64,000 bases of DNA from Dehalococcoidia bacterium (GCA_965263185.1 OZ253588.1:1025454-1089453); one strand, 5' to 3'. Shown: positions 38,796-51,450, numbered from the stretch's first letter. Made by a program: numbers and translations. Notes: a model not told the origin generated them from the letters alone.

Positions 38796-39632
38796 CTGCT
38801 ATGTTCCTTGGCTATTGGTCATTGGTGAGAAGGTGGCGGAGGAAATGTCCATCGAATAAGCGCCGTTTTGGCTATAGAATCCGATCCGCCCGATTGCCTA
38901 TCCCACAAATTATCCCACGCCCTTGACTCGGCAAGACTATTTTATGAGTAGGCATTAGTTAGAGGGACTCTAGGGAGTATTCATAGATTATATCAGATGG
39001 GCATGCGGGCTACAATGGTCTGTATGCGGGCGCGCAGCAGTTCCCCGCCGCCGTTCATAAACCTCCTGAGTTGACTAAAGGGTACATATGGCGCACGTCC
39101 TCTAGGCGTGAAACGCCGTCCTGGACGGCATCGATGGCCCGGATTCCGAGATTCGCCGGACTCTCAGGAACGGCCAGGGACGATTTATGCCGCCGCCGGA
39201 GCGCGTGAGTGTGCCTGAGCGCGGGGCGCGTGGGAATATGTCCGACACCGACTCATCCTGAATGAGTTAGATGATTGATGGCAGAAGATTCTTGAGCAGC
39301 AGTTTCCAAGAACTGCCAGGAGAAAAGGACCGTCCAGAGGCGGCTCCCCACTGGAGAGTAGTATCCACCCGGGAGGCCCGGGTAAGAATCGGACTCGCCC
39401 TACACGACCTGGACCATCGCCCAGGTCGTCGATGATCTTTTGCGCCGCGTTTTCGGCGCCCCCCGCGTGCTGCGATATAATATAAGAGGGAAATGAAACT
39501 GAGGCCAAAAATAACAGACAGAGGGTACACTGCAATTCGTTATTATCGGTGTATCTGTGTCGCCACATGGGATTTTATGATATGATGAATGTCCTGTGTC
39601 GGAAAATAGCCGCTCGAAAAGGAGAACGTCCT

Positions 39633-40442
39633 GTGCCGCAACGCCAGAGACCCAGGCTCAAGCGGATCCCCATAACGTGCGACTGGTGCGGCTCCACCGC
39701 TCTCAAGCTTTACCCGTCGCGGGAGAGCGTCCGGCAGCAGCTCTCGCCCTATCACTTCTGCAGCTCGACGTGTCAACGCGATCACTGGGAGGCGCGGCGG
39801 AAAGCCGAGTGGGTTGCCGAGTCATACCCATGCCGTCAGTGCGGCGCTACTCTCACCACCCAGCAGGCCCCCGGCCGGCGGCGGGACTACTGCTCAGCCG
39901 CGTGCAAGCAGAAGGCGGCTCGGGAGCGGTTACGGCGGAATCCTGCCGGCGCGGTGGTGGTGGCGCGGCAGAGATTCCAGGAGGCATGGCGCCAGACGGT
40001 GAAAGCCATGAACCAGTGGGTAGGGTTCGACGCGCATGGAGCGCCAGTGGGAAAGGCCTACCGCCAGGCTGCGCTTGTCCACAATACCGAAGGAGTCACC
40101 GAAGAGGAGAAGATGGAGGCCGTCGTACGCATTTCCAAAGCGATCAGAGGCCTAGATGGTCCGCAGTATGTGGGAGAGCCGTCCAGGTATCGTGCTTCAG
40201 GTGGGGTGTGGCAGGAGTGGTGGAATTGGTGGCTGGAGGGCCGGAGGCAGCGCTGGCGCTTCTACGACGATCACCTTGCCGCGGCCCAGGCGGCCACGGC
40301 GGAACTGCGCAAGCGAGAGAGAGTCGCCGCACGTCGGGCCGAAACGGCGAGGCTACGCCGGGCCGCGGCACGCGACCACGTAGAAGACTCTACGGGGTCC
40401 GTTGGGTTCTCCCCTGCGGACCTGGAGCTGAGGCCCGGGTAA
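39633..40442 (+). CDS. hypothetical Arg-rich protein with two Zn-ribbon-like Cys4 units
   Basis: CDWCGS...FCSSTC and CRQCGA...YCSAAC. GTG at 39633 lies 8 nt after AAAGGAG. The ORF is open from 39549. It is GC-rich inside AT-rich flanks. An overlapping 308-aa ORF in another frame was judged a shadow. Confidence 0.45.
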   Translation: MPQRQRPRLKRIPITCDWCGSTALKLYPSRESVRQQLSPYHFCSSTCQRDHWEARRKAEWVAESYPCRQCGATLTTQQAPGRRRDYCSAACKQKAARERLRRNPAGAVVVARQRFQEAWRQTVKAMNQWVGFDAHGAPVGKAYRQAALVHNTEGVTEEEKMEAVVRISKAIRGLDGPQYVGEPSRYRASGGVWQEWWNWWLEGRRQRWRFYDDHLAAAQAATAELRKRERVAARRAETARLRRAAARDHVEDSTGSVGFSPADLELRPG

Positions 40443-40880: not shown

Positions 40881-43409
40881 CTAATCCTCATAACCCAGCT
40901 CCTTTGCCCGTTGAAAGTCTTCGGCTGCTCCTTCTGCATCGCCCATCTTCTCTCTGGTCACGCCTCGAACCTGATATGCTATGGCACTTTTCGGTTCACT
41001 CTCAACCGAAGAGTTGAAATCGGCCAATGCCAAGGCAAATTCCCCCCTCGCCGCATGAGCGTAACCACGGAACCGGTAGACGAGCGAATTGTCGGGCGCA
41101 AGCCGAATTGTAATGTCGTAGTCGGCAATAGCCCTGTCGAAATCGAGCTTCTGGCGATACGCCATTCCTCTGCCAAAATAGGAGGGTATGTGTTCCGGAT
41201 CCAGCTTAAGAGCTTCGTTGTAATCGGCAATTGCCAAATCGTATTCGCCGTTGAATCGAAGGCAATCTCCTCTACATCGACGTGCGTCTACGTGGCTTGG
41301 TTCTAGTCGTAAAGCCTCGTCAAAGTCCGCGATGGCTAGTTCCAGCTCATCCCGTTCGCCATAAGCCATCCCGCGATGGTGGTAAGCCATGGCGTTGTTG
41401 GCACCAAGAAGAATCGCCCTTGTTGTATCGGAAACCACCCTATCAAAGTTGTTCATGTAACCATGGACAACCCCGCGCAATTGGTATGCAGCGGAATTGC
41501 CCGGGGTAAGCTTAATTGCTTCGTCCAGGTCTGAAATTGCTCGTACATTGTCTTCCTTTTCGAAGAAGGCCAATGCCCTGTACATGTATGCCGCGGCATT
41601 GTTGGGATTGCGCCTCAAGGAGGCACTGAGAGCAGCCATGTCTAGCTTGTCGCCCTTCTTCATGTCTAATGAGGGCAACTCCGCAATTGCCGCATTCACC
41701 AACTCTGATAGCTGTTCCAACTCTTCAGCGAATCCCATATGGCGCGCCATCTTGCTGTAGAGGTTCGACTTTGACCTGTCACCAGCCAGCAATCCGGTGA
41801 CGGCTGTGGCAACTACCACTGGTGGGGCGTCTGGATTCAACCTCAGGGCAGACTCGAAGGTTTCCAGAGATTCTTGGAACCTTCCCAATTGACGTAAGGC
41901 CACCGCCATTGCTTGGTAGTAGTATGCATCAAGGGAACCGCGTTCCGGGGCAACGCCTTGCAGATGCTCAACGGCTTCCCGTTCCCGGCCGGCCATGAGC
42001 AATATCCATCCGATTTCAGTCCAAGGAAGAAGCCAGTTTGGGTCCAACTTTGCGGCGAGCCAGCACTCCTCTAGACCTTCTTCGACCAAGGCCGCATCGC
42101 CTCTCTTGGCGCCTATGCCCCCCTTGACCGATCCCAAGGTGAAATGGTTTGCAGGGTCCAACAGGTCCAGTTCGGCCGCCTTGGTAACCTCGGCTAGAGC
42201 CTCGGGCATTTTCCCTTGTATTTGTAGCTCCATAGATCGCTCGTAGTGGGCGTAGGCTTCAGGTTTGCTTACATCCCAGCCCTTGAGAAGTCCACCTTCG
42301 GTTTCTTGGATCAGGGCATCAACTTCTCCCCGATGAACCTGATAGTTGACGGCTATCACCCTCCTTATCCAGTCCGAGCCCACCGCGACTAGGTCCTCTT
42401 TCCACTCACTATCCGACTCCCTCTCGGCCAATTCAGACAAGACCGGCTCTGAATACAGGGAGCCTGCACCATGAGCTAGTATGTCGGCGAAAGCAGCGTG
42501 GTGGGATTCCGTATCTAAGTGGACTTTTAAGCTGTCGTACACAAGAGTAGCGTAATTGCGCAAATGCTGAACTATCTCTGTGACGACTTCGGTTCCTATG
42601 TAGCCTGCCAGGGCAACGGCGATATCGCTGGCCCAATAGAGCCGTCTCAGTTCGCGGAGTACACGTGTGCGTTCGTGAGAGTCACCCTCCTTGGCTAATG
42701 CCTTGGCTATGTTCCTCAGGTTCTTACTCGATGGCCGCGAGCCCCGGTACACCCACGCTTCCACAGTGTTTTTGTCCACTACCATCTTACAGGAGAAATC
42801 CCAAAGAGAGGGGATTCCCGCTTCGGAGCGCATACTATCGAGATATTTGCCCCTGCGGTCAATTTCGACCCAGTCCAGAAAATTGAGAGCGATTGGTTCG
42901 GAACCGCTGAGGCGCATCTGAGCCGCGACTCTCAGCGCCAGGTCGACAGCAGCAAGCCTCGCATAGATCCTCCAAACGTTGGGTAAGTGGCTTGGGAACA
43001 CGCGCGGCATCCTGGGCCGAAGCAGAGATCTCAACCGGTCCCACTTCACCGCATGGTGATCGAGTATGGTGGTCAGCGCTTGTACAGTGGATGAAGCGCC
43101 ATCTCCATCGCTTGTACTTGTGCCCACCCCTTGTTCGACTAGGGTTTCCGCTATAGCCTTGATAATCTCAGTACGGCTGGACTCCTTCACTCTGTCTTCC
43201 AAATACCCTGAGAAATAGCGGCTGGCTGTCTTTGATTGGAGCTTTGGATGTTCTATACCCAAAGTCTTTACCAACTGCCCCAATATCTGGCCGCTGGTCG
43301 GCAGCTGCGGGGCAACTTCTCTTTCCAATACTTCGTCCGTACCTTCGCTGGTTTTGCTTTCCGACATTTCACTCCCTACGTGGTTCATTCTACCAGTCAT
43401 AGGAACCAC
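40881..43409 (-). CDS. HTH (XRE-like) + TPR repeat protein, coupled to pVip
   Basis: The C-terminal ~400 aa contain about 10 TPR units (e.g. AYMYRALAFFEKEDNVRAISDLDEAIKLTP, AMAYHHRGMAYGERDELELAIADFDEALRLEP, SYFGRGMAYRQKLDFDRAIADYDITIRLAP). The N-terminal half has an XRE-like stretch, VDKNTVEAWVYRGSRPSSKNLRNIAKALA. No P-loop. Candidate starts: 43409 (GTG), 43400, 43388. Confidence 0.75.
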   Translation of the reverse strand: MVPMTGRMNHVGSEMSESKTSEGTDEVLEREVAPQLPTSGQILGQLVKTLGIEHPKLQSKTASRYFSGYLEDRVKESSRTEIIKAIAETLVEQGVGTSTSDGDGASSTVQALTTILDHHAVKWDRLRSLLRPRMPRVFPSHLPNVWRIYARLAAVDLALRVAAQMRLSGSEPIALNFLDWVEIDRRGKYLDSMRSEAGIPSLWDFSCKMVVDKNTVEAWVYRGSRPSSKNLRNIAKALAKEGDSHERTRVLRELRRLYWASDIAVALAGYIGTEVVTEIVQHLRNYATLVYDSLKVHLDTESHHAAFADILAHGAGSLYSEPVLSELAERESDSEWKEDLVAVGSDWIRRVIAVNYQVHRGEVDALIQETEGGLLKGWDVSKPEAYAHYERSMELQIQGKMPEALAEVTKAAELDLLDPANHFTLGSVKGGIGAKRGDAALVEEGLEECWLAAKLDPNWLLPWTEIGWILLMAGREREAVEHLQGVAPERGSLDAYYYQAMAVALRQLGRFQESLETFESALRLNPDAPPVVVATAVTGLLAGDRSKSNLYSKMARHMGFAEELEQLSELVNAAIAELPSLDMKKGDKLDMAALSASLRRNPNNAAAYMYRALAFFEKEDNVRAISDLDEAIKLTPGNSAAYQLRGVVHGYMNNFDRVVSDTTRAILLGANNAMAYHHRGMAYGERDELELAIADFDEALRLEPSHVDARRCRGDCLRFNGEYDLAIADYNEALKLDPEHIPSYFGRGMAYRQKLDFDRAIADYDITIRLAPDNSLVYRFRGYAHAARGEFALALADFNSSVESEPKSAIAYQVRGVTREKMGDAEGAAEDFQRAKELGYED

Positions 43410-44259
43410 CTCTCGACAGGAATTTCTCAGGAGCTATCGAGATGTCACGGAGCGCCTCCTCTACTCCAACCTCCAGGATAGGTCGGCTGTAGATGTGAGT
43501 TCCGGAAACGTTGTCGAAGAACCTCCCAGCGGGGTCTACCATGACGTAGCTTCCCGTCATCAGGTCGTTGCTCTCCGGCACCACTACGATTCCAGTCATC
43601 TCGACTCGCCTGCACTGTTGGACGTACCGCTGAAATTCACCATCTGAAACTATATGCTCTCCAATTCCCGCGTCGTTCTGCCCCTTGACAGGGAGCACCT
43701 GGAAGAGCTTCCATCTCTCTGGGCGAGCCTTCACTATGAAATCGGTGAGGTCTTCCCCCAAGTTGCTTTGCGTCACCACGGTGTTGACCTTTATGCGAAC
43801 ACCGGATTGCTTGAGTATTTCGACTACACACAGGTAATCTTCTTTACTCATGGGGCCGTGTCTAGTAGTCCTGCCAATACCCACGAGTGTGTCCCTGTCC
43901 ACGGAATCAATGCTCAACGCAATCCAGGCGAGGCTTCCTTTGACGCTCTCCAGCCATTCCCCTGTAGTCCGGCTCCCATTGGTCACCACCGATGTGGTGA
44001 GTCCTAACTCCTTCGCCCGCCGGATCAGGTCAGGCAGCCAGGGACACAGGGTCGGCTCGCCACCGGCGAAGTTAATCTTTTGGAAGCCGGCCCCTGAAAG
44101 AGACTCTACAACTAGGATGCAATCCTCACGTCCGAGATGTCCCTTGGGCAGAAACTGCGGCTCAATATCCTGGAAGGTAGCGAAGCAGAACTTACATCTC
44201 ATATTGCAGGCCTTCCACAGGTGGTAGTTGACGGACGGAATCTCGTTGACTATGCTCAT
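43390..44259 (-). CDS. prokaryotic viperin (radical-SAM ddhNTP synthase homologue)
   Basis: SVNYHLWKACNMRCKFCF (CxxxCxxC), KINFAGGEP, RWKLFQVLPVKGQN, VPESNDLMTGSYVMVD, ILEVGVEEAL, FLSRGGSYDW. These are co-linear with the viperin/RSAD2 blocks as I recall them. ATG at 44259 follows AGGAGAGAA. The ORF is open to 44295. Confidence 0.85.
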   Translation of the reverse strand: MSIVNEIPSVNYHLWKACNMRCKFCFATFQDIEPQFLPKGHLGREDCILVVESLSGAGFQKINFAGGEPTLCPWLPDLIRRAKELGLTTSVVTNGSRTTGEWLESVKGSLAWIALSIDSVDRDTLVGIGRTTRHGPMSKEDYLCVVEILKQSGVRIKVNTVVTQSNLGEDLTDFIVKARPERWKLFQVLPVKGQNDAGIGEHIVSDGEFQRYVQQCRRVEMTGIVVVPESNDLMTGSYVMVDPAGRFFDNVSGTHIYSRPILEVGVEEALRDISIAPEKFLSRGGSYDW

Positions 44260-44462
44260 TTCTCTCCTCGGATATCTGTTGCTTTTGCACCGCATATCCC
44301 TATGGTATGGAGCCTATCCCCCGCTCACTACCCTACTTTGGTGGACAATTTGCATTTCGAACCCCCTATTTCTGTGATGAGGGGACGAGTTAATCGGGCC
44401 TCGCTACCGACTCACAGAGCGATCACGCGGGGATGTAGTCACGCTCGATTATGGCGTAGAAT

Positions 44463-47400
44463 ATGGCTATGCCAGTAACCACAACAAAGCTGACCACGGC
44501 AGTCGAGCAGTACTTCGCCGACCTCCGGCTCATACGGGCGTCCGGCGGCGCTACCGGTGAGCGGTCGTACTACCCGGCGCTGACCAACCTGCTTAACGCC
44601 GTAGGCAGCACTCTCAGGCCCCAGGTGTTCTGCGTAGGCGAGCTTGCCGAGCAGGGCGCGGGCCACCCCGACTTCGGCCTCTACGCGAGACGGCAGGTGC
44701 AGCGGGGAACTCCGCGCCCCGGCCAAGTCCCCGAACGCGGAGTCGTGGAGGTCAAGCCCGCCGGTGACGACGCCTGGTTGACGGCGGACAGCGACCAGGT
44801 GAGCCGCTACTGGGGTCGGTACAGGCTCGTGCTGGTCACCAACACCCGCGACTTCGTGCTGGTGGGCGAGGACGCGCAGGGCAACCCCGTTAAGCTGGAG
44901 ACCTTCCGTCTTGCCGACTCGGAGCAGGCGTTTCACTCCCGGCTGGAGACGCCCCGGTCCTTTGCCCGCGCCATGGGCGCGGGCCTGGGCGAGTACCTTT
45001 GCCGTGCGCTGTCCCACAGCGCGTCGATAGTCGAACCCAAGGACCTGGCATGGCTCATGGCGTCCTACGCGCGGGACGGCCTGGCGCGGGTGGAGGCTGC
45101 GGGCGACGCCCCATCCCTCCATGCCGTCCGCTCCGCCCTTGAGGAGGCGCTGGGCGTGCGCTTCGAGGGTGATAAGGGCGCGGCCTTCTTCCGCTCAACC
45201 CTGGTGCAGACCCTCTTCTACGGCGTCTTCTCCGCGTGGGTGCTCTGGGCCCGCCAGACGACGCCGCCCGCAGGCCCGTTCAACTGGCACGACGCCGTAT
45301 GGCACCTGAGAGCGCCCGTCCTCCGAGCCCTCTTCCAGCAGCTGTCCTCGCCCTCACAGCTACAGCCACTGGGACTGGTCGAGCTGCTGGACTGGACTGC
45401 GGCGGCCCTGGACCGTGTCGACCGCGGTGCCTTCTTCGACCGCTTCGACGCAGGCGAGGCCGTGCCGTACTTCTACGAGCCGTTCCTGGAGGCCTTCGAC
45501 CCCGAGCTTCGCAAGCAGCTTGGCGTCTGGTACACGCCCGCCGAGGTGGTGCGCTACATGGTCGCTCGCGTCGACATGGCGCTGAAGGAGGACCTGGGCA
45601 TCGCCGACGGCCTGGCGGCCGACAACGTCTACGTCCTTGACCCCTGCTGCGGCACCGGGACGTACCTTGCCGAGGTTCTGCGACGCATCGCCGCAAATCT
45701 CCAGGGCAAGGGCCTGGGCGCTCTCACCGGAGCGCAGGTGAAGCGGGCGGCCACCCAAAGGGTGTTCGGGTTCGAGATCATGCCTGCGCCCTTCGTCGTC
45801 TCCCATCTACAGGTTGGACTGACCATGCAGGCGCTGGACGCTCCCCTGTCCGATGACGAGACGGAGCGCGCCGGGGTGTACCTCACCAACGCCCTCACCG
45901 GCTGGGAGCCCAGCGTGCAGAAGCCGCTGCCCTTCCCGGAGCTGGAGGAGGAGCGCGACCGCGCCGATAGGGTGAAGCAGGATACGCCGGTCCTGGTCAT
46001 CCTGGGCAATCCGCCCTACAACGGCTATGCGGGCATGGCTGTCGAAGAAGAGCGGGAGCTCTCCACGGCCTATCGGACCACCAAGCAGGTGCGGCGTCCG
46101 GAGGGCCAGGGGCTGAACGACCTGTACGTGCGATTCTTCCGCATGGCAGAGCGTCGCATTGCCGAGAAGACGGGCCGGGGCGTGGTCTGCTTCATCTCCA
46201 ACTACTCCTGGCTGGACGGCCTCTCCTTCACGGGCATGAGGGAGCGCTACCTGGAGGCCTTTGACGTTATCCGTATAGACAACCTCAACGGCGACAAGTA
46301 CAAGACGGGCAAGACGACTCCCGGTGGCGCGCCGGACCCAAGCATCTTCTCCATGCCGGGCGATCCGGTGGGCATCCAGGTGGGTACAGCGATTACGACC
46401 CTGGTGCGCAAGGCTGACCACCAGCCCGCCAAAGAGGTCGGCTTCCGGCATCTGTGGGGACAGACAAAGCTCTCCGACCTGACGGCGACCGCCGAAGTGG
46501 GACCGGATGAGCTTTACGACAGCGTTGAGCCGAGCTTGCCTTTGGGGTTGCCGTTCGCTCCCGTCACTGTCAGCGCTCGATGGGCGGATTGGCCCGCGCT
46601 GCCAGACCTGTTCCAGATGTACTTCCCCGGGGTGCAGACGAGCAGAGACACGTTCCTATCGGACGTTGACATTGACCGGCTAGAGCGTCGTATAGCGGAC
46701 TACTTCAACCCTAACGTTAGCCATGAAGAGATTGCTCGGCGCTATCCTTCAGCGATGAACTCTACGGCAAACTATAAGGCTATTCCAGTTCGAGATGCAT
46801 TGCTTAACCGGGGCAACTCCGAAGACACAGGTGTCTTGCGCTTCGACTTTCGGCCATTTGACAAAAGATGGCTGTATTGGGATGGGCAACATGGCTTACT
46901 CAATCGTCCACGCCCTGAATACAAACCTCATGTATTCAAGGGGAACATAGCATTGGTTTCTCAACAGAAGCCTCGTCGAGAATGGTCTCCGCCCCAAGTG
47001 ATTGCTGCGTTGGGTTGCTACGACCTGATGGACCGTAATGCTTCATGCTTCCCTCTATGGCTCCACGAAGAGGGCATGGCACTTGACGGCGGCGGAGAGC
47101 AGCGCCGCCCCAACCTGTCGGACGCGGCCCAACGCTACCTTGACCGCCTAAGCCTGGGAGTGGAGGACCTGTTCCACCACGTCCTCGCCGTGCTGCACGA
47201 CCCATCCTACAGGGAGGCCAACGCCGGCGCCCTCAGGATGGAGTGGCCCCGCATCCCGCTGCCGGGCTGGCCGGACGGCGATACTTCGGGAGCGGCTGAA
47301 GAGCTGGCGGCATCGGCGGCGCGGGGACTGGAGCTTGCCGCGCTGCTTGACTCGGAGACGCCCGTTGCTGGCGTCACGACCGGCGCGCTGCGGTCGGAGA

Positions 47401-47810
47401 TGGCCGCGATCGCCGTGCCCTCAACCACGGACGGCGGCAACATGGCCGGTGACGACTTCTCGCTGACGGCTGGCTGGGGACACTTCGGGCAGGGCGAGGC
47501 TGTCATGCCGGGCCAGGGCAGAGCCGTCGAGCGCCCGTACACCGCGGAGGAGCGCGCCGCGCTGGGCACATCGGCAGACGCGCTTGGCAGCGCCACTTTC
47601 GACATCCACCTCAACGACCGCGCCTACTGGCGCAACGTCCCGTCGGCGGTCTGGAGCTACAAGCTCGGCGGATACCAGGTTCTCAAGAAGTGGCTCTCCT
47701 ACCGCGAGCGCGGCGTCCTGAACAGACCGCTGCGACCGGAGGAGGCGCAGCACTTCACGGACACCGCGAGGAGGATTGCGGGGATACTGCGGCTGGTGGG
47801 GGAGGGGTGA
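44463..47810 (+). CDS. single-chain PD-(D/E)xK + N6-adenine DNA methyltransferase + type-ISP-like C-terminal TRD (type IIG/IIL-like, no helicase)
   Basis: N-terminus: GHPDFGLY...GVVEVKP (D...ExK). Motif I VLDPCCGTGTYL. Motif IV ILGNPPYNGY. FISNYSWLDGLSFTGMRE block. C-terminus VWSYKLGGYQVLKKWLSYRE as in type ISP specificity domains. Confidence 0.75.
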   Translation: MAMPVTTTKLTTAVEQYFADLRLIRASGGATGERSYYPALTNLLNAVGSTLRPQVFCVGELAEQGAGHPDFGLYARRQVQRGTPRPGQVPERGVVEVKPAGDDAWLTADSDQVSRYWGRYRLVLVTNTRDFVLVGEDAQGNPVKLETFRLADSEQAFHSRLETPRSFARAMGAGLGEYLCRALSHSASIVEPKDLAWLMASYARDGLARVEAAGDAPSLHAVRSALEEALGVRFEGDKGAAFFRSTLVQTLFYGVFSAWVLWARQTTPPAGPFNWHDAVWHLRAPVLRALFQQLSSPSQLQPLGLVELLDWTAAALDRVDRGAFFDRFDAGEAVPYFYEPFLEAFDPELRKQLGVWYTPAEVVRYMVARVDMALKEDLGIADGLAADNVYVLDPCCGTGTYLAEVLRRIAANLQGKGLGALTGAQVKRAATQRVFGFEIMPAPFVVSHLQVGLTMQALDAPLSDDETERAGVYLTNALTGWEPSVQKPLPFPELEEERDRADRVKQDTPVLVILGNPPYNGYAGMAVEEERELSTAYRTTKQVRRPEGQGLNDLYVRFFRMAERRIAEKTGRGVVCFISNYSWLDGLSFTGMRERYLEAFDVIRIDNLNGDKYKTGKTTPGGAPDPSIFSMPGDPVGIQVGTAITTLVRKADHQPAKEVGFRHLWGQTKLSDLTATAEVGPDELYDSVEPSLPLGLPFAPVTVSARWADWPALPDLFQMYFPGVQTSRDTFLSDVDIDRLERRIADYFNPNVSHEEIARRYPSAMNSTANYKAIPVRDALLNRGNSEDTGVLRFDFRPFDKRWLYWDGQHGLLNRPRPEYKPHVFKGNIALVSQQKPRREWSPPQVIAALGCYDLMDRNASCFPLWLHEEGMALDGGGEQRRPNLSDAAQRYLDRLSLGVEDLFHHVLAVLHDPSYREANAGALRMEWPRIPLPGWPDGDTSGAAEELAASAARGLELAALLDSETPVAGVTTGALRSEMAAIAVPSTTDGGNMAGDDFSLTAGWGHFGQGEAVMPGQGRAVERPYTAEERAALGTSADALGSATFDIHLNDRAYWRNVPSAVWSYKLGGYQVLKKWLSYRERGVLNRPLRPEEAQHFTDTARRIAGILRLVGEG

Positions 47811-47815
47811 AACGC

Positions 47816-48895
47816 ATGCCCAAGTCTAGCGTCTTCTGGTTCGCGCTCTCAGCGGTAGTACTGCTGTCAGTGGGCCTTTGGCTCATTTGGTGGCAATGGG
47901 ACTGGTTGCACCCCGAAGCGTCGACAACCGTGTCGAACAGCGAAACACTTAGGAACGTAGGACTTCTGCTTGGAGGCGCACTCGCCTTTGTTTTTGCCGG
48001 GTGGCGTGCTTGGGTCGCGGAGCGCCAGGCCAGCGCAGCGCAGGCCCAGGCTGCTACGGCGCAGGCTCAGGCAGATATTGCGCAACAGCAAGTTGAAACC
48101 GCCCAGCAGGGCTTACTCAATGAGCGATATCAACGTGGGGCGGAAATGCTCGGCAGCCCGGTGCTCTCGGTGCGTCTGGGAGGAATTTATGCCCTGGGAC
48201 GTCTCGCTGAGGAATACTCAGAGCTATATCATGTGCAAGTCATGCAGATCTTCTGCGCGTTCGTGCGTAACCCGGTCGAGATAAACGGCATTAGGGAATT
48301 GACACCGATAGAAACTGGGCCGCCTCACGGTGTTCCACCGCCTCTAAGGGAAGATGTTCAGGCCATCATGGATGCAATCGGCGTTCGTAGTGGGAATCAT
48401 CTTGAGATTGAGGGAAAGGCTAGATTTCGCCTGAATCTGAGTGGCAGTGACCTAAGAGGAGCTACGCTTATAGGTGCGAATCTTACCAGCGCAATTTGGG
48501 AGTATCCTTCAGGGCTATCAACGGCGGAGTCCTTAGCCTATGACAAATACACAGACCTTTCTAGCGCAAAACTGTGCTCGGCAAGATTGGCGTTTGCGGA
48601 GTTGCAGAAGGCGATGCTAACTGGTGCATGCCTGTGCAATGCATGGATTGCCAGGACGGATTTCTCAGAGGCTCATTTCGCAGAAGCAAATCTGCACGGA
48701 GCACTTTCTTGGGGCCCAATCCTCTCAGGCGCTACCTTCTCAATTGGCATCCTGTCTGCGAAGGGTATAAGACAATGGGATTTAGATTCATGTGAGGCCG
48801 CGCCGGAAAAACTCCCAGTTTTAGCTGGGGTTCATGACGTTGGAACGGGTGCGCCCCTGGTGTGGAGTGGGAAATCGCTTATTGAGCAAAGTTAG
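47816..48895 (+). CDS. membrane-anchored pentapeptide-repeat protein
   Basis: ATG lies 5 nt after the methyltransferase stop. Two N-terminal TM helices, a Q/A coiled coil (AQAQAATAQAQADIAQQQVETAQQ), RLGGIYALGRLAEE helical repeats, then pentapeptide runs (NLSGSDLRGATLIGANLTSA, ARLAFAELQKAMLTGACLCNAWIARTDFSEAHFAEANLHGA). Confidence 0.75.
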   Translation: MPKSSVFWFALSAVVLLSVGLWLIWWQWDWLHPEASTTVSNSETLRNVGLLLGGALAFVFAGWRAWVAERQASAAQAQAATAQAQADIAQQQVETAQQGLLNERYQRGAEMLGSPVLSVRLGGIYALGRLAEEYSELYHVQVMQIFCAFVRNPVEINGIRELTPIETGPPHGVPPPLREDVQAIMDAIGVRSGNHLEIEGKARFRLNLSGSDLRGATLIGANLTSAIWEYPSGLSTAESLAYDKYTDLSSAKLCSARLAFAELQKAMLTGACLCNAWIARTDFSEAHFAEANLHGALSWGPILSGATFSIGILSAKGIRQWDLDSCEAAPEKLPVLAGVHDVGTGAPLVWSGKSLIEQS

Positions 48896-48937: not shown

Positions 48938-49333
48938 CTATGGGATTGACGGGTCGCTGGATATAGCCGCCAATGCCTGGTCGAAGGTCTTGATCTCCCG
49001 GACACCCCTCCGCTGGCAACTGGCCAGGTGGCAGAGGTCCCGGGCTTGCAGGCTGGGATACTGCTCGTGGAGCTGCCGAGCCAGGGCTACGTCGGCCTCT
49101 TCCAGCGGCCAAACTTCAACTGCGGCGCTCGCTATCAACTCTAGCGTCGCATCGAAGGTTTGCAACCTTCCGGTGGGCAGGTATACATGGGCCAGTTCCT
49201 GCATCACCTCTGCTGAAGTGCATAGGGGCGCGCCACTCCGGTTGGCTTCGACGAAGAAGCGCTGGGCCGTGGTCTGGAGCGCATGAGGGCGTCCTACCGC
49301 GTAGATGAAGACGTTTGTGTCTACGAATATCAC
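48938..49333 (-). CDS. vapC: PIN-domain toxin VapC
   Basis: MIFVDTNVFIY, EVMQEL, ARDLCHLA, FDQAL (four acidic PIN positions). 4-nt overlap with the upstream antitoxin. Confidence 0.85.
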   Translation of the reverse strand: MIFVDTNVFIYAVGRPHALQTTAQRFFVEANRSGAPLCTSAEVMQELAHVYLPTGRLQTFDATLELIASAAVEVWPLEEADVALARQLHEQYPSLQARDLCHLASCQRRGVREIKTFDQALAAISSDPSIP

Positions 49334-49605
49334 GTTGCAGCCACGCCTCGTCCACGTGACTCGCTCATGACGCGCAAGTGCTCACTCCAGTCCGGCTCCG
49401 TCTCCGGACCTTCCAACGCGGCGCATGACCTGAAGAATTCCTTCACGTCTTCCGGGGACTCGAACAGATTGACGCTCTGGCGCGTTTCAAGGCGCTCATG
49501 GGCGGCCGCTCGCAGCCAGGCGCTGAGGGACATACCCTCCCGCCTTGCTTGGTGAACAAAGCGGTCTCGGTCCTCGTCAGGCATTACCAACTGCACTCTG
49601 GCCAT
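49330..49605 (-). CDS. vapB: RHH/CopG-type antitoxin VapB
   Basis: 91 aa. The beta-strand-helix-helix N-terminus RVQLVMPDEDRDRFVHQARREGMSLSAWLRAAA is typical of ribbon-helix-helix antitoxins. Confidence 0.75.
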   Translation of the reverse strand: MARVQLVMPDEDRDRFVHQARREGMSLSAWLRAAAHERLETRQSVNLFESPEDVKEFFRSCAALEGPETEPDWSEHLRVMSESRGRGVAAT

Positions 49606-49894: not shown

Positions 49895-51450
49895 CTAGGA
49901 GTCTGTCCGAGAAACACGGTTGGCGAGTGGTTTGGGGTATAATGGGGCCAGTCCAGTAGCGGGGAGTTGTTGATGAGGAAGACCTACCTTCCCTACGAAC
50001 CCGACCAGCAGTTGCTGTTGCCGGCGGCATTGCAGGAGTGGCTGCCTGACGACCATCTGGCGTACTTCATATCCGACGTGGTGGACCAGTTGGACATATC
50101 GGAGGTCACCGCTCGCTACGAGCGGGAACGGCGTGGCGGGCCGCCGTATCATCCACGGATGATGGTCAAGGCGCTGCTGTATGGCTACTGCGTCGGGGTG
50201 GCGTCCTCACGCCGCATCGCCCAGCGTCTCCACGAGGACATCGCCTTCAGGGTGTTGGCGGCGAACAACACACCGGACTTCCGGACCATCTCCGACTTTC
50301 GCAAGGGTAATCTGGATGCGCTGTCGGGCCTGTTCGTACAGGTACTGGCGTTGTGCCAGAAGGCGGGACTGGTGAAGCTGGGGCACGTGGCGCTGGACGG
50401 CACGAAGGTCAAGGCCAACGCTTCCAAACACAAGGCGATGAGTTATGGACGGATGAAGGAGAGGGAAGCGGAGGTGGCGGAGTTGCTGGAGCGAGCCCGG
50501 GAAGTGGACGATGAGGAAGACCGGCGGTACGGCAAAGACAAGCGTGGAGATGAGTTGCCGGAGTAATTGGCCTTTCGAGAGGGTCGGTTGGAGAAGATAC
50601 GGGAAGCCATGGCGGCGCTGGAAGCCGAGGCGCAGGCTGAGGCCGAACGGGCCGAGGCCGAAGGTGGTAAGCGCCCGGGTGCGCCCGATGACAAGGCCCA
50701 GCGCAACTTCACCGATACCGAGTCGCGCATCATCCCCGCGCCTGGAGGAAAGGACTTCCTGCAAGCGTACAACTGTCAGGCGGTGGTGGACAGCGCTCAC
50801 CAGGTAATCGTGGCGGCGCGGGCCACCAACCGGACTTCGGATAAGCGACAGGCTGCGGCGATGATGGAGGAGACCATCGACAACGTCGGCGCAGTCCCCA
50901 GGGAAGTATCCGCCGATGCCGGCTACTACTCGGCAAAGGCGGTTGAAGGTCTCTACAGGCTGTGCGTGGACCCGTTGGTTGCGCCGGAGCAGACCTGCCA
51001 CGGCCGGGTTGTGCCACCTGCGCCCCGAGGACGCATACCCAGCCATCTGTCTTCCAGGGACCGGATGCGACGGAAGTTACAGACCAGGCGGGGTCGGCAG
51101 CGCTACGCTTTGCGGATGCAAACTGTGGAGCCGGTATTCGGCCAGATCAAGCAGGGCCGGGGGTTCCGGCAGTTCCTGCTGCGGGGACTGGAGAAGGTGA
51201 ACGGCGAATGGTCGCTGATCTGCACGGGCCACAACCTGCTCAAACTGTTCCGCTTTGGGGTCAATCTGCACAGGAAAGCGCGGGCCGATGGGCCAGCCCA
51301 ACGCATCAGGAACTTTTGCCGAGGTAGTGAGCACGGCGCTATTCGCAAAGCTATCTGGGGACTGGCCGGGGCAACCGGCACAATTAGTTGTCGCAATCCA
51401 TTGTCGCAAACCCGCAAGCGCCGTTAGACAATCCTCGGACGGGCTGCTAG
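49895..51450 (+). mobile_element. IS1182-family insertion sequence
   Basis: Imperfect terminal inverted repeats ctaggagtctgtccgagaa (49895-) and the reverse complement of ttctcggacgggctgctag-type sequence (-51450), about 16/20 matching. They enclose a single transposase reading frame. Confidence 0.65.
49967..51427 (+). pseudogene. IS1182-family DDE transposase interrupted by one in-frame TAA
   Basis: The two track ORFs (49967-50566, 50567-51427) are in the same frame, separated only by TAA at 50564-50566. N-terminus: YHPRMMVKALLYGYCVGVASSRRIAQRL...DFRTISDFRK. C-terminus: ADAGYYS...VEPVFGQIKQGRGFRQFLLRGLEKVNGEWSLICTGHNLLKL. Confidence 0.8.

Follow-up and report, generated by a model that had tools for sequence, protein, structure and literature searches.

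A prokaryotic viperin gene with a conserved helix-turn-helix/TPR partner and a promoter-adjacent motif in Dehalococcoidia

Prokaryotic viperins (pVips) are reportedly an established family of anti-phage enzymes, and are said to occur as single genes or together with a nucleotide kinase. They have mostly been studied as single genes under foreign promoters, and to our knowledge their control in the cell is open. Defence systems with adjacent regulators, for their part, are already familiar. The pVip considered here lies in a 64,000-nucleotide stretch of DNA from a Dehalococcoidia bacterium (GCA_965263185.1 OZ253588.1:1025454-1089453), referred to below as the window, and is followed on the same strand by a gene for a large protein, the partner, that combines a helix-turn-helix (HTH) with tetratricopeptide repeats (TPRs). 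With the known pVips, recognized as "viperin" by PADLOC and DefenseFinder, this locus has in common the enzyme family, the CxxxCxxC motif, the GGE motif and an extension at the C-terminus that ends in Trp. It differs from the pVip-kinase systems in that it contains no kinase and has instead an HTH+TPR partner, of 550-870 aa across the family, along with a promoter motif. Described partners of viperins comprise nucleotide kinases, HicA and RelE neighbours (Gerdes preprint) and eukaryotic fusions. An incomplete survey of the literature, including the Shomar et al. preprint, yielded no HTH or TPR partner of a viperin, in agreement with a preliminary description of the locus that knew of no such system. 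What is new here is that an effector of a known kind is accompanied by a cis element and by a conserved, regulator-like partner that lacks a published description. The best explanation of this cassette is a mobile two-gene anti-phage unit of Dehalococcoidia/Chloroflexota. Its features, in positions of the window, are the following.

43390-44259, minus strand: pVip coding sequence, 289 aa plus stop
44185-44208, minus strand: radical-SAM (S-adenosylmethionine) cluster motif C18-x3-C22-x2-C25 (CNMRCKFC), from the translation
44264-44269, minus strand: Shine-Dalgarno sequence GAGGAG for pVip, from sequence reading
44302-44330, minus strand: predicted sigma70-type promoter, with -35 TAGTGA at 44325-44330, a 17-nt spacer and -10 TACCAT at 44302-44307
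44331-44348, minus strand: window copy of the conserved cis motif, TTGTCCACCAAAGTAGGG, spanning roughly -53 to -36 as counted from the predicted transcription start
40881-43367, minus strand: partner coding sequence, most likely 828 aa (maximal open reading frame to 43409)
42213-43367, minus strand: N-terminal 385-aa all-helical domain, family-defining (AlphaFold2 [AF2] pLDDT 83)
42696-42863, minus strand: XRE-type HTH, aa ~169-224 of the 828-aa protein, from the family profile and Foldseek
41682-42263, minus strand: TPR block 1, ~4 repeats, aa ~369-562, from AF2 helix pairs
40899-41639, minus strand: TPR block 2, seven canonical 34-aa repeats, aa ~577-823, from their register and Pfam TPR_1/TPR_2

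The viperin and its linked partner

The open reading frame (ORF) at 43390-44259(-) is a genuine prokaryotic viperin, as the preliminary description had proposed. It scores 305.2 bits against the NCBIfam model NF038283 (viperin_w_prok; cutoff 180), and three PADLOC pVip models match it with E-values of 1e-83 to 1e-111. MoaA models, by comparison, reach 45-68 bits against cutoffs of 231-325 and other radical-SAM models are also far below cutoff, which places the protein in the viperin family and not among the MoaA-like enzymes. In a phmmer search of the PDB, residues 6-289 match fungal, cnidarian and mouse viperins (7n7h, 9dfw, 6b4c, 7n7i, 5vsl) with E-values of 3e-41 to 6e-38, while the next families (SkfB, PqqE, MoaA) follow at 1e-7 or worse. 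The co-linearity with animal viperin that had been noted by eye extends through the C-terminal extension to the terminal Trp (...RGGSYDW) of the solved structures. The expected CxxxCxxC motif lies inside the Pfam Radical_SAM match, and the SAM-binding GGE motif is found within KINFAGGEP.

From its family, the enzyme is predicted to be a viperin-type radical-SAM synthase of 3'-deoxy-3',4'-didehydronucleoside triphosphates (ddhNTPs). In the beta8 loop, the PDB alignment places an Asn at the position of mouse Cys314 and a His at that of Lys319. Prokaryotic viperins typically have such a nucleobase pocket of the Asn type, which has been tied to promiscuous or GTP-capable members (Shomar et al. 2023 preprint), and therefore no single product is assigned. 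The preferred translation start is 44259, in front of which the GAGGAG box is found, with AGGAG-like boxes at the matching position in homologous loci. A 301-aa version from the ATG at 44295 is unlikely, because that ATG coincides with the predicted transcription start.

The linkage of the two genes is strict on the partner's side. Among GTDB contigs, surveyed at one genome per species, 18 loci encode a relative of the partner, all in metagenome-assembled genomes (MAGs) of Dehalococcoidia/Chloroflexota, and a pVip of 59-73% identity lies immediately upstream on the same strand in every one of them, one of these pVips being frameshifted. The converse survey covered the 80 closest pVip loci and found the partner directly downstream in 52, again exclusively Dehalococcoidia/Chloroflexota MAGs. 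The recurrent linkage to viperins on which the preliminary description had staked its interpretation was thus found from both directions. Clustering of all ORFs in the 18 loci returned pVip and the partner but no third conserved gene. The two genes are also co-inherited, with pairwise distances of pVip and of the partner N-domain correlated at r=0.91 and the N-domain evolving ~1.6 times faster. A word-indexed search with this domain retrieved 86 relatives, essentially all unnamed metagenomic proteins, and a scan of JGI metagenomes only 5 loci; none was found in IMG/VR, GenBank phages or PLSDB plasmids.

The 28 pVip loci without the partner form two groups. The first belongs to Latescibacterota, Poribacteria and other lineages and has a thymidylate-kinase-like gene downstream and an unknown ~600-aa gene upstream of pVip, but neither the partner nor the motif. 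The second is found in Dehalococcoidia, where, for members of the main pVip clade, secondary loss of the partner is suggested because a recombinase or transposase adjoins pVip, as in several loci, or because the motif persists, as in three. Loci L069-L096 (Latescibacterota, Poribacteria) look like a different, three-gene viperin arrangement; they share an ORF of 550-680 aa upstream, without a Pfam match, and a thymidylate-kinase-like ORF of ~200 aa downstream (for example, L085:2832-4652 and L085:5863-6459). Kinship of the partner N-domain with the ~600-aa ORF upstream of these pVips was considered and rejected (hhalign probability 0.1%). The closest pVips (L020-L098) come from Dehalococcoidia, Latescibacterota and Poribacteria MAGs, of which some isolate names (APA_bin, RHO3_bin, SB0666_bin) hint, as names, at sponge microbiomes.

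The maximal ORF of the partner, 40881-43409(-), encodes 842 aa from a GTG; this is the protein of the preliminary description, although its likely start is the ATG at 43367, which gives 828 aa. The reported absence of a P-loop holds, in that the sequence contains no Walker A motif and scans with Pfam, NCBIfam and PADLOC found no NTPase family. PADLOC returned no match to the partner, and the first ~400 aa are without any domain match. The full-length AF2 model (mean pLDDT 86) resolves into three parts, namely the N-domain, TPR block 1, and a linker with TPR block 2. Against the PDB, Foldseek found no global match of the N-domain to any solved fold. Where several N-terminal HTH stretches had been described, one XRE-type HTH is confirmed at the family level by profiles and models. 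HTH_3/HTH_31 match 13-14 of 24 partner homologues at the aligned position (best E 7e-7), and the family profile, compared with the PDB, aligns positions 162-221 with P22 C2, the CapH N-terminal domain (NTD) and a designed DNA-binding protein (E 0.02-0.09 for P22 C2 and CapH). On the modelled N-domain, Foldseek gives local XRE-HTH matches to C.Esp1396I, C.BclI and the CapH NTD (7t5u) with a probability of ~1.0. The recognition helix, NT(V/I)(D/E)xW, is kept across the superfamily. A second HTH at aa 18-82 proved unsupported (hhalign probability of 1.9% to the confirmed HTH).

In the C-terminal half, the predicted ten or so TPR units were recovered as ~11, arranged as a block of ~4, a disordered linker and then seven in register. 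TPR models of Pfam match aa ~430-840, and Foldseek aligns this part with the superhelices of OGT, SPY and CTPR (consensus-TPR) proteins. Across the whole superfamily, conservation is strongest in block 1, with near-invariant columns 386-545 (A3), and the signature of this block recurs in relatives that are not linked to pVip. The partners come in two size classes, ~550-570 aa and ~860 aa; block 2 occurs only in the latter, which is seen only in pVip-linked cassettes. A hypervariable, arms-race TPR array was considered and rejected, as the long class conserves its TPRs to the same degree as its N-domain.

The pVip and partner genes follow each other closely and very probably share a transcript. 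Counted from the first base after the pVip stop, candidate partner starts lie at -20 (GTG), -11 (ATG), +1, +22 (ATG) and +61 (TTG). The best of these in the window is the ATG at 43367, which leaves a 22-nt gap and has a Shine-Dalgarno sequence, AGGGAG, at 43372-43377; homologues start ~8 codons ahead of a conserved LPTSGQ. Candidate starts do overlap or abut the pVip stop, as had been described, but the overlap is not a conserved trait. Several homologues have their sole in-frame starts 39-61 nt past the pVip stop, and a conserved start/stop overlap was therefore rejected; the translational coupling read from it is unproven. The ATG at -11 arises incidentally from the conserved codons for Tyr-Asp-Trp-stop.

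The promoter-adjacent motif and the exchangeable first gene

Ahead of pVip, non-coding conservation is confined to an 18-nt motif and a -10 box, TAnnAT. The motif has the consensus wTTTGTCC-R-N3-R-ACTKGGG, with a core of TTGTCC-N5-ACTKGGG. Information content is maximal at the motif and at the -10 box, which is fixed at 41-42 nt from the motif start, and the -35 box (YTGacg) directly follows the motif, such that the two abut. The promoter of the window (44302-44330) is predicted, its role being assigned by homology; a generic promoter scan skips this site owing to its poor -35 box, TAGTGA. Of the 52 loci that carry the partner, 51 have the motif in this position, as against 3 of the 28 pVip loci that do not; the motif so follows the partner and not the first gene. 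It is a putative operator or activator site. Neither an Rfam family nor a tRNA att site was found at the motif.

An exact-pattern scan of 185,579 GTDB genomes for the motif with its -10 box returned 61 matches, ~39 of them in Chloroflexota. Of the latter, 29 precede pVip and eight stand before a small ORF that has a partner-family gene behind it, with one more before unrelated ORFs and one truncated by the end of the locus. Matches in unrelated phyla are scattered, about as many as expected by chance, and none is accompanied by a pVip or partner gene. The motif is also present in cassettes that were found independently of it (L165, L168, L171). Two side observations concern its occurrence elsewhere. 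In a single Dehalococcoidia locus, L126 (156-1515, oriented from the motif), motif and promoter stand before unrelated ORFs, with pVip and a partner-family gene both absent within 8 kb. At L029:8779-9334(-), a second perfect copy of motif and promoter (TTTGTCCTTCCGACTGGGGCTGAC...) lies ahead of a 157-aa Smr-domain ORF that is convergent with the pVip-partner cassette, a hint of a small regulon.

The partner family is not exclusive to viperins. At E<=1e-3, an exhaustive profile search gave 709 representatives (50% clusters), of which 123 remain at E<=1e-30; most are 550-620 aa in length. Their contexts were sampled by three routes, starting from the N-domain profile, from the motif or from the small ORF, with consistent results. 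Nearly all sampled contexts show the motif, the promoter, a hydrophilic ORF of 52-74 aa and then the HTH+TPR gene, such that the family mostly follows an ORF of ~56 aa instead of a pVip. This small ORF bears the signature NHxNQ(L/M)NPNNxAYWxSRG and replaces pVip in L103, L116, L120, L130, L132, L150, L115, L165-L168, L171 and L162 (for example, L120:809-979 and L171:329-499). It matches no Pfam or NCBIfam model and has neither family nor name; a collection of 5.8 billion proteins holds only 11 clusters of it, none named. It is hydrophilic with no evident signal peptide, as judged without a signal-peptide predictor. One cassette begins instead with a Lys/Gly/Ala-rich ORF of 53 aa (L136:832-993), which is like seed maturation protein (SMP)/late embryogenesis abundant (LEA) proteins and weakly matches the SMP family, below cutoff (E 7e-4). 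L169 is an exception, in which a motif with three mismatches stands directly ahead of the partner-like gene and the small ORF is missing. In L162, a remote low-GC relative, the small ORF is kept and the motif has diverged, with the same 41-nt spacing to the -10 box. Across these contexts, the constant frame is the promoter motif with the HTH-TPR gene, between which one first gene can replace another. The form with viperin, in most cases with the additional block of seven TPRs, is a derivative specific to Dehalococcoidia.

Genomic setting and the role of the partner

The cassette falls in the part of the window from 40 to 44 kb, which has 54% G+C, compared with 62-64% in both flanks. On the pVip side, it adjoins the following genes.

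44463-47810, plus strand: type IIG/ISP restriction-methylase (Type_ISP_C, 3e-46; PADLOC REase_MTase_IIG, 3e-89)
47690-48895, plus strand: pentapeptide-repeat protein with a hydrophobic stretch at its N-terminus
48938-49605, minus strand: PIN/RHH toxin-antitoxin (TA) pair
49967-51427, plus strand: DDE transposase, split into two ORFs (DUF772 and DDE_Tnp_1)

The restriction-methylase, of 1115 aa, is divergent from pVip and ~200 bp away from it. Because a restriction-modification (RM) gene, a TA pair and a transposase adjoin, the pair sits in a small defence-island-like insertion. No kinase domain occurs among the window neighbours of pVip. The other side of the cassette consists of housekeeping genes (miaB-like, nadA, nadC). 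Between miaB and the cassette, a 297-aa Cys-rich ORF (39549-40442, plus strand) shows weak zf-MYND/TRASH-like matches below cutoffs; it is not conserved among related loci.

The cautious suggestion of the preliminary description, that the partner is a sensor or regulator, is supported by the promoter-adjacent motif that travels with it. We give slightly better than even chances to a partner that regulates transcription of its own operon from the motif and receives its signal through the TPRs. It would bind the asymmetric motif abutting the -35 box of the cassette promoter, and by this means would control transcription of the operon, its own gene included. Activation would be the likelier direction, because of the class-II-like position of the motif and the weak -35 box in the window's clade. 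The TPR part would take the input, which may be a protein, peptide or other ligand made upon infection or stress. That the partner binds DNA at the motif, in which direction it would exert control and what kind of signal it would receive are each proposed from sequence comparison.

A number of observations weigh against a transcriptional role. The N-terminal half of the window's own partner has no Pfam HTH match, its HTH being too diverged, and the best conservation is in TPR block 1 rather than in the HTH. At 828-870 aa, the protein is far larger than the control of one operon would seem to require. The motif is non-palindromic, which is unusual for XRE-type dimers, and motif variants were not seen to covary with the HTH recognition helix. 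The window copy has two mismatches and would alone be insignificant in 64 kb; it is the aligned position that counts. The association of motif and partner could reflect shared ancestry of the promoter-plus-partner frame. The flanks of cassettes in other genomes are defence-like only in part, some being housekeeping genes (MFS transporters, a peptidase) and others an nSTAND-TPR protein or transposases. Lastly, the pVip stop is overlapped at 43387-43416(-) by a sigma70-like match (TCGAGA-18-TAGAAT, its -10 TG-extended) from which the partner could be transcribed separately, such matches in the region being only ~2 standard deviations above shuffle expectation.

Some of these points would fit a partner that acts mainly by protein contact instead. 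Its TPRs would serve as sensor or scaffold, bind pVip or else a phage protein, and gate the synthesis of ddhNTPs post-translationally, with the HTH secondary or vestigial. Such a role would suit two genes that are tightly adjacent and co-inherited, TPR blocks conserved as well as or better than the HTH, a seven-TPR extension seen only in pVip-linked members, and a window HTH that is degenerate by Pfam standards. We nonetheless think it unlikely. The recognition helix is conserved superfamily-wide, and the same family and motif occur without any pVip, for which reason the core function of the partner cannot depend on pVip. The modules of the higBA and hicAB type, with the toxin gene first and the XRE-HTH gene second, suggest another arrangement, whereby the first gene product (pVip or the small ORF) would be harmful to the host and the HTH protein its antitoxin-type neutralizer and autorepressor, whose loss on infection would set the first gene free. 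The gene order here resembles theirs, pVips have been reported beside HicA and RelE, and different first genes occupy the slot between a constant promoter and HTH gene. However, neither the small ORF nor pVip matches a toxin family, and the partner is some ten times the size of a typical antitoxin. Autorepressors usually bind over the -10 box or transcription start, whereas the motif lies upstream of the -35 box, and a TA-like module is accordingly improbable in our estimation. More improbable still would be a general stress-response regulator cassette that is not antiviral, in which viperin is but one cargo among stress proteins. The alternative first genes are small and very hydrophilic, one with the weak SMP/LEA-like match, and the housekeeping flanks of several copies elsewhere would be in keeping with it. 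It sits poorly with the membership of pVip in what is reportedly an established anti-phage family, with the type IIG RM gene, PIN TA pair and transposase around the window cassette, and with the nSTAND-TPR protein and transposases beside other copies.

Returning to a partner that regulates transcription at the motif, a wider proposal can be framed, which we consider possible but doubtful. The HTH-TPR protein would be an infection-sensing switch that makes viperin inducible, and together with its operator would form a chassis for interchangeable cargo (pVip, the NPNN protein, the Smr nuclease), that is, a hitherto unrecognized family of cargo-swapping inducible cassettes. If the regulator does respond to infection, this would amount to inducible viperin immunity in bacteria and a new TPR-based sensing module, and, if true, to a bacterial counterpart of interferon-induced viperin expression. 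In practical terms, the cassette offers a conserved candidate regulator, an 18-nt candidate operator and a natural comparison set, made up of the same regulator family with other cargo genes and of related pVips with a kinase instead. The narrow, uncultured host range limits the reach of the finding, and any experiment needs a surrogate host because all hosts are uncultured Chloroflexota.

Comparison with known regulator and sensor systems

The preliminary description likened the HTH+TPR architecture to the peptide-sensing RNPP-type regulators, which turns out to be a loose analogy only. RNPP and AimR-type receptors (PlcR, NprR, Rgg, AimR) do unite an XRE-type HTH and helical repeats in one polypeptide, and the likeness makes the role of a ligand-controlled transcription factor plausible for the partner. 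The HTH of the partner, however, is internal, with ~170 aa before it and ~160 aa of non-TPR helices after it, and its TPRs are canonical 34-aa repeats of the OGT/CTPR type and not RNPP folds. No RNPP/AimR Pfam family matches the partner at E<=0.01, none is among the top 50 Foldseek matches of either partner model, and no gene for a secreted pro-peptide lies by the partner, there being no third conserved gene and the small ORF of the wider family lying upstream. Membership of the partner in the RNPP family was rejected on account of the internal HTH and the missing family or fold match. The hosts differ as well, being Firmicutes or their phages for RNPP/AimR and Chloroflexota for the partner.

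Sensors of the STAND/Avs type join TPRs to a P-loop NTPase domain, which the partner does not have. Closer in genetic arrangement are CapH/CapP and CapW of CBASS and BrxR of BREX, in which a transcription factor is likewise encoded beside defence genes; the N-terminal HTH of CapH (7t5u) is also a close local structural match to that of the partner. Homology to these regulators is limited to the HTH. They follow another sensor logic, using a protease partner or a WYL domain, and are usually encoded upstream or divergently. The RM controller (C) proteins resemble the cassette in having an XRE-type HTH in the same operon as a defence effector and a site beside the -35 box, from which they time the expression of the effector. 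The partner HTH finds its best structural matches in two of them, C.Esp1396I and C.BclI. Controller proteins are, however, dimers of ~80 aa that act on palindromic C-boxes, whereas the protein described here has ~830 aa with TPRs and is paired with an asymmetric site.

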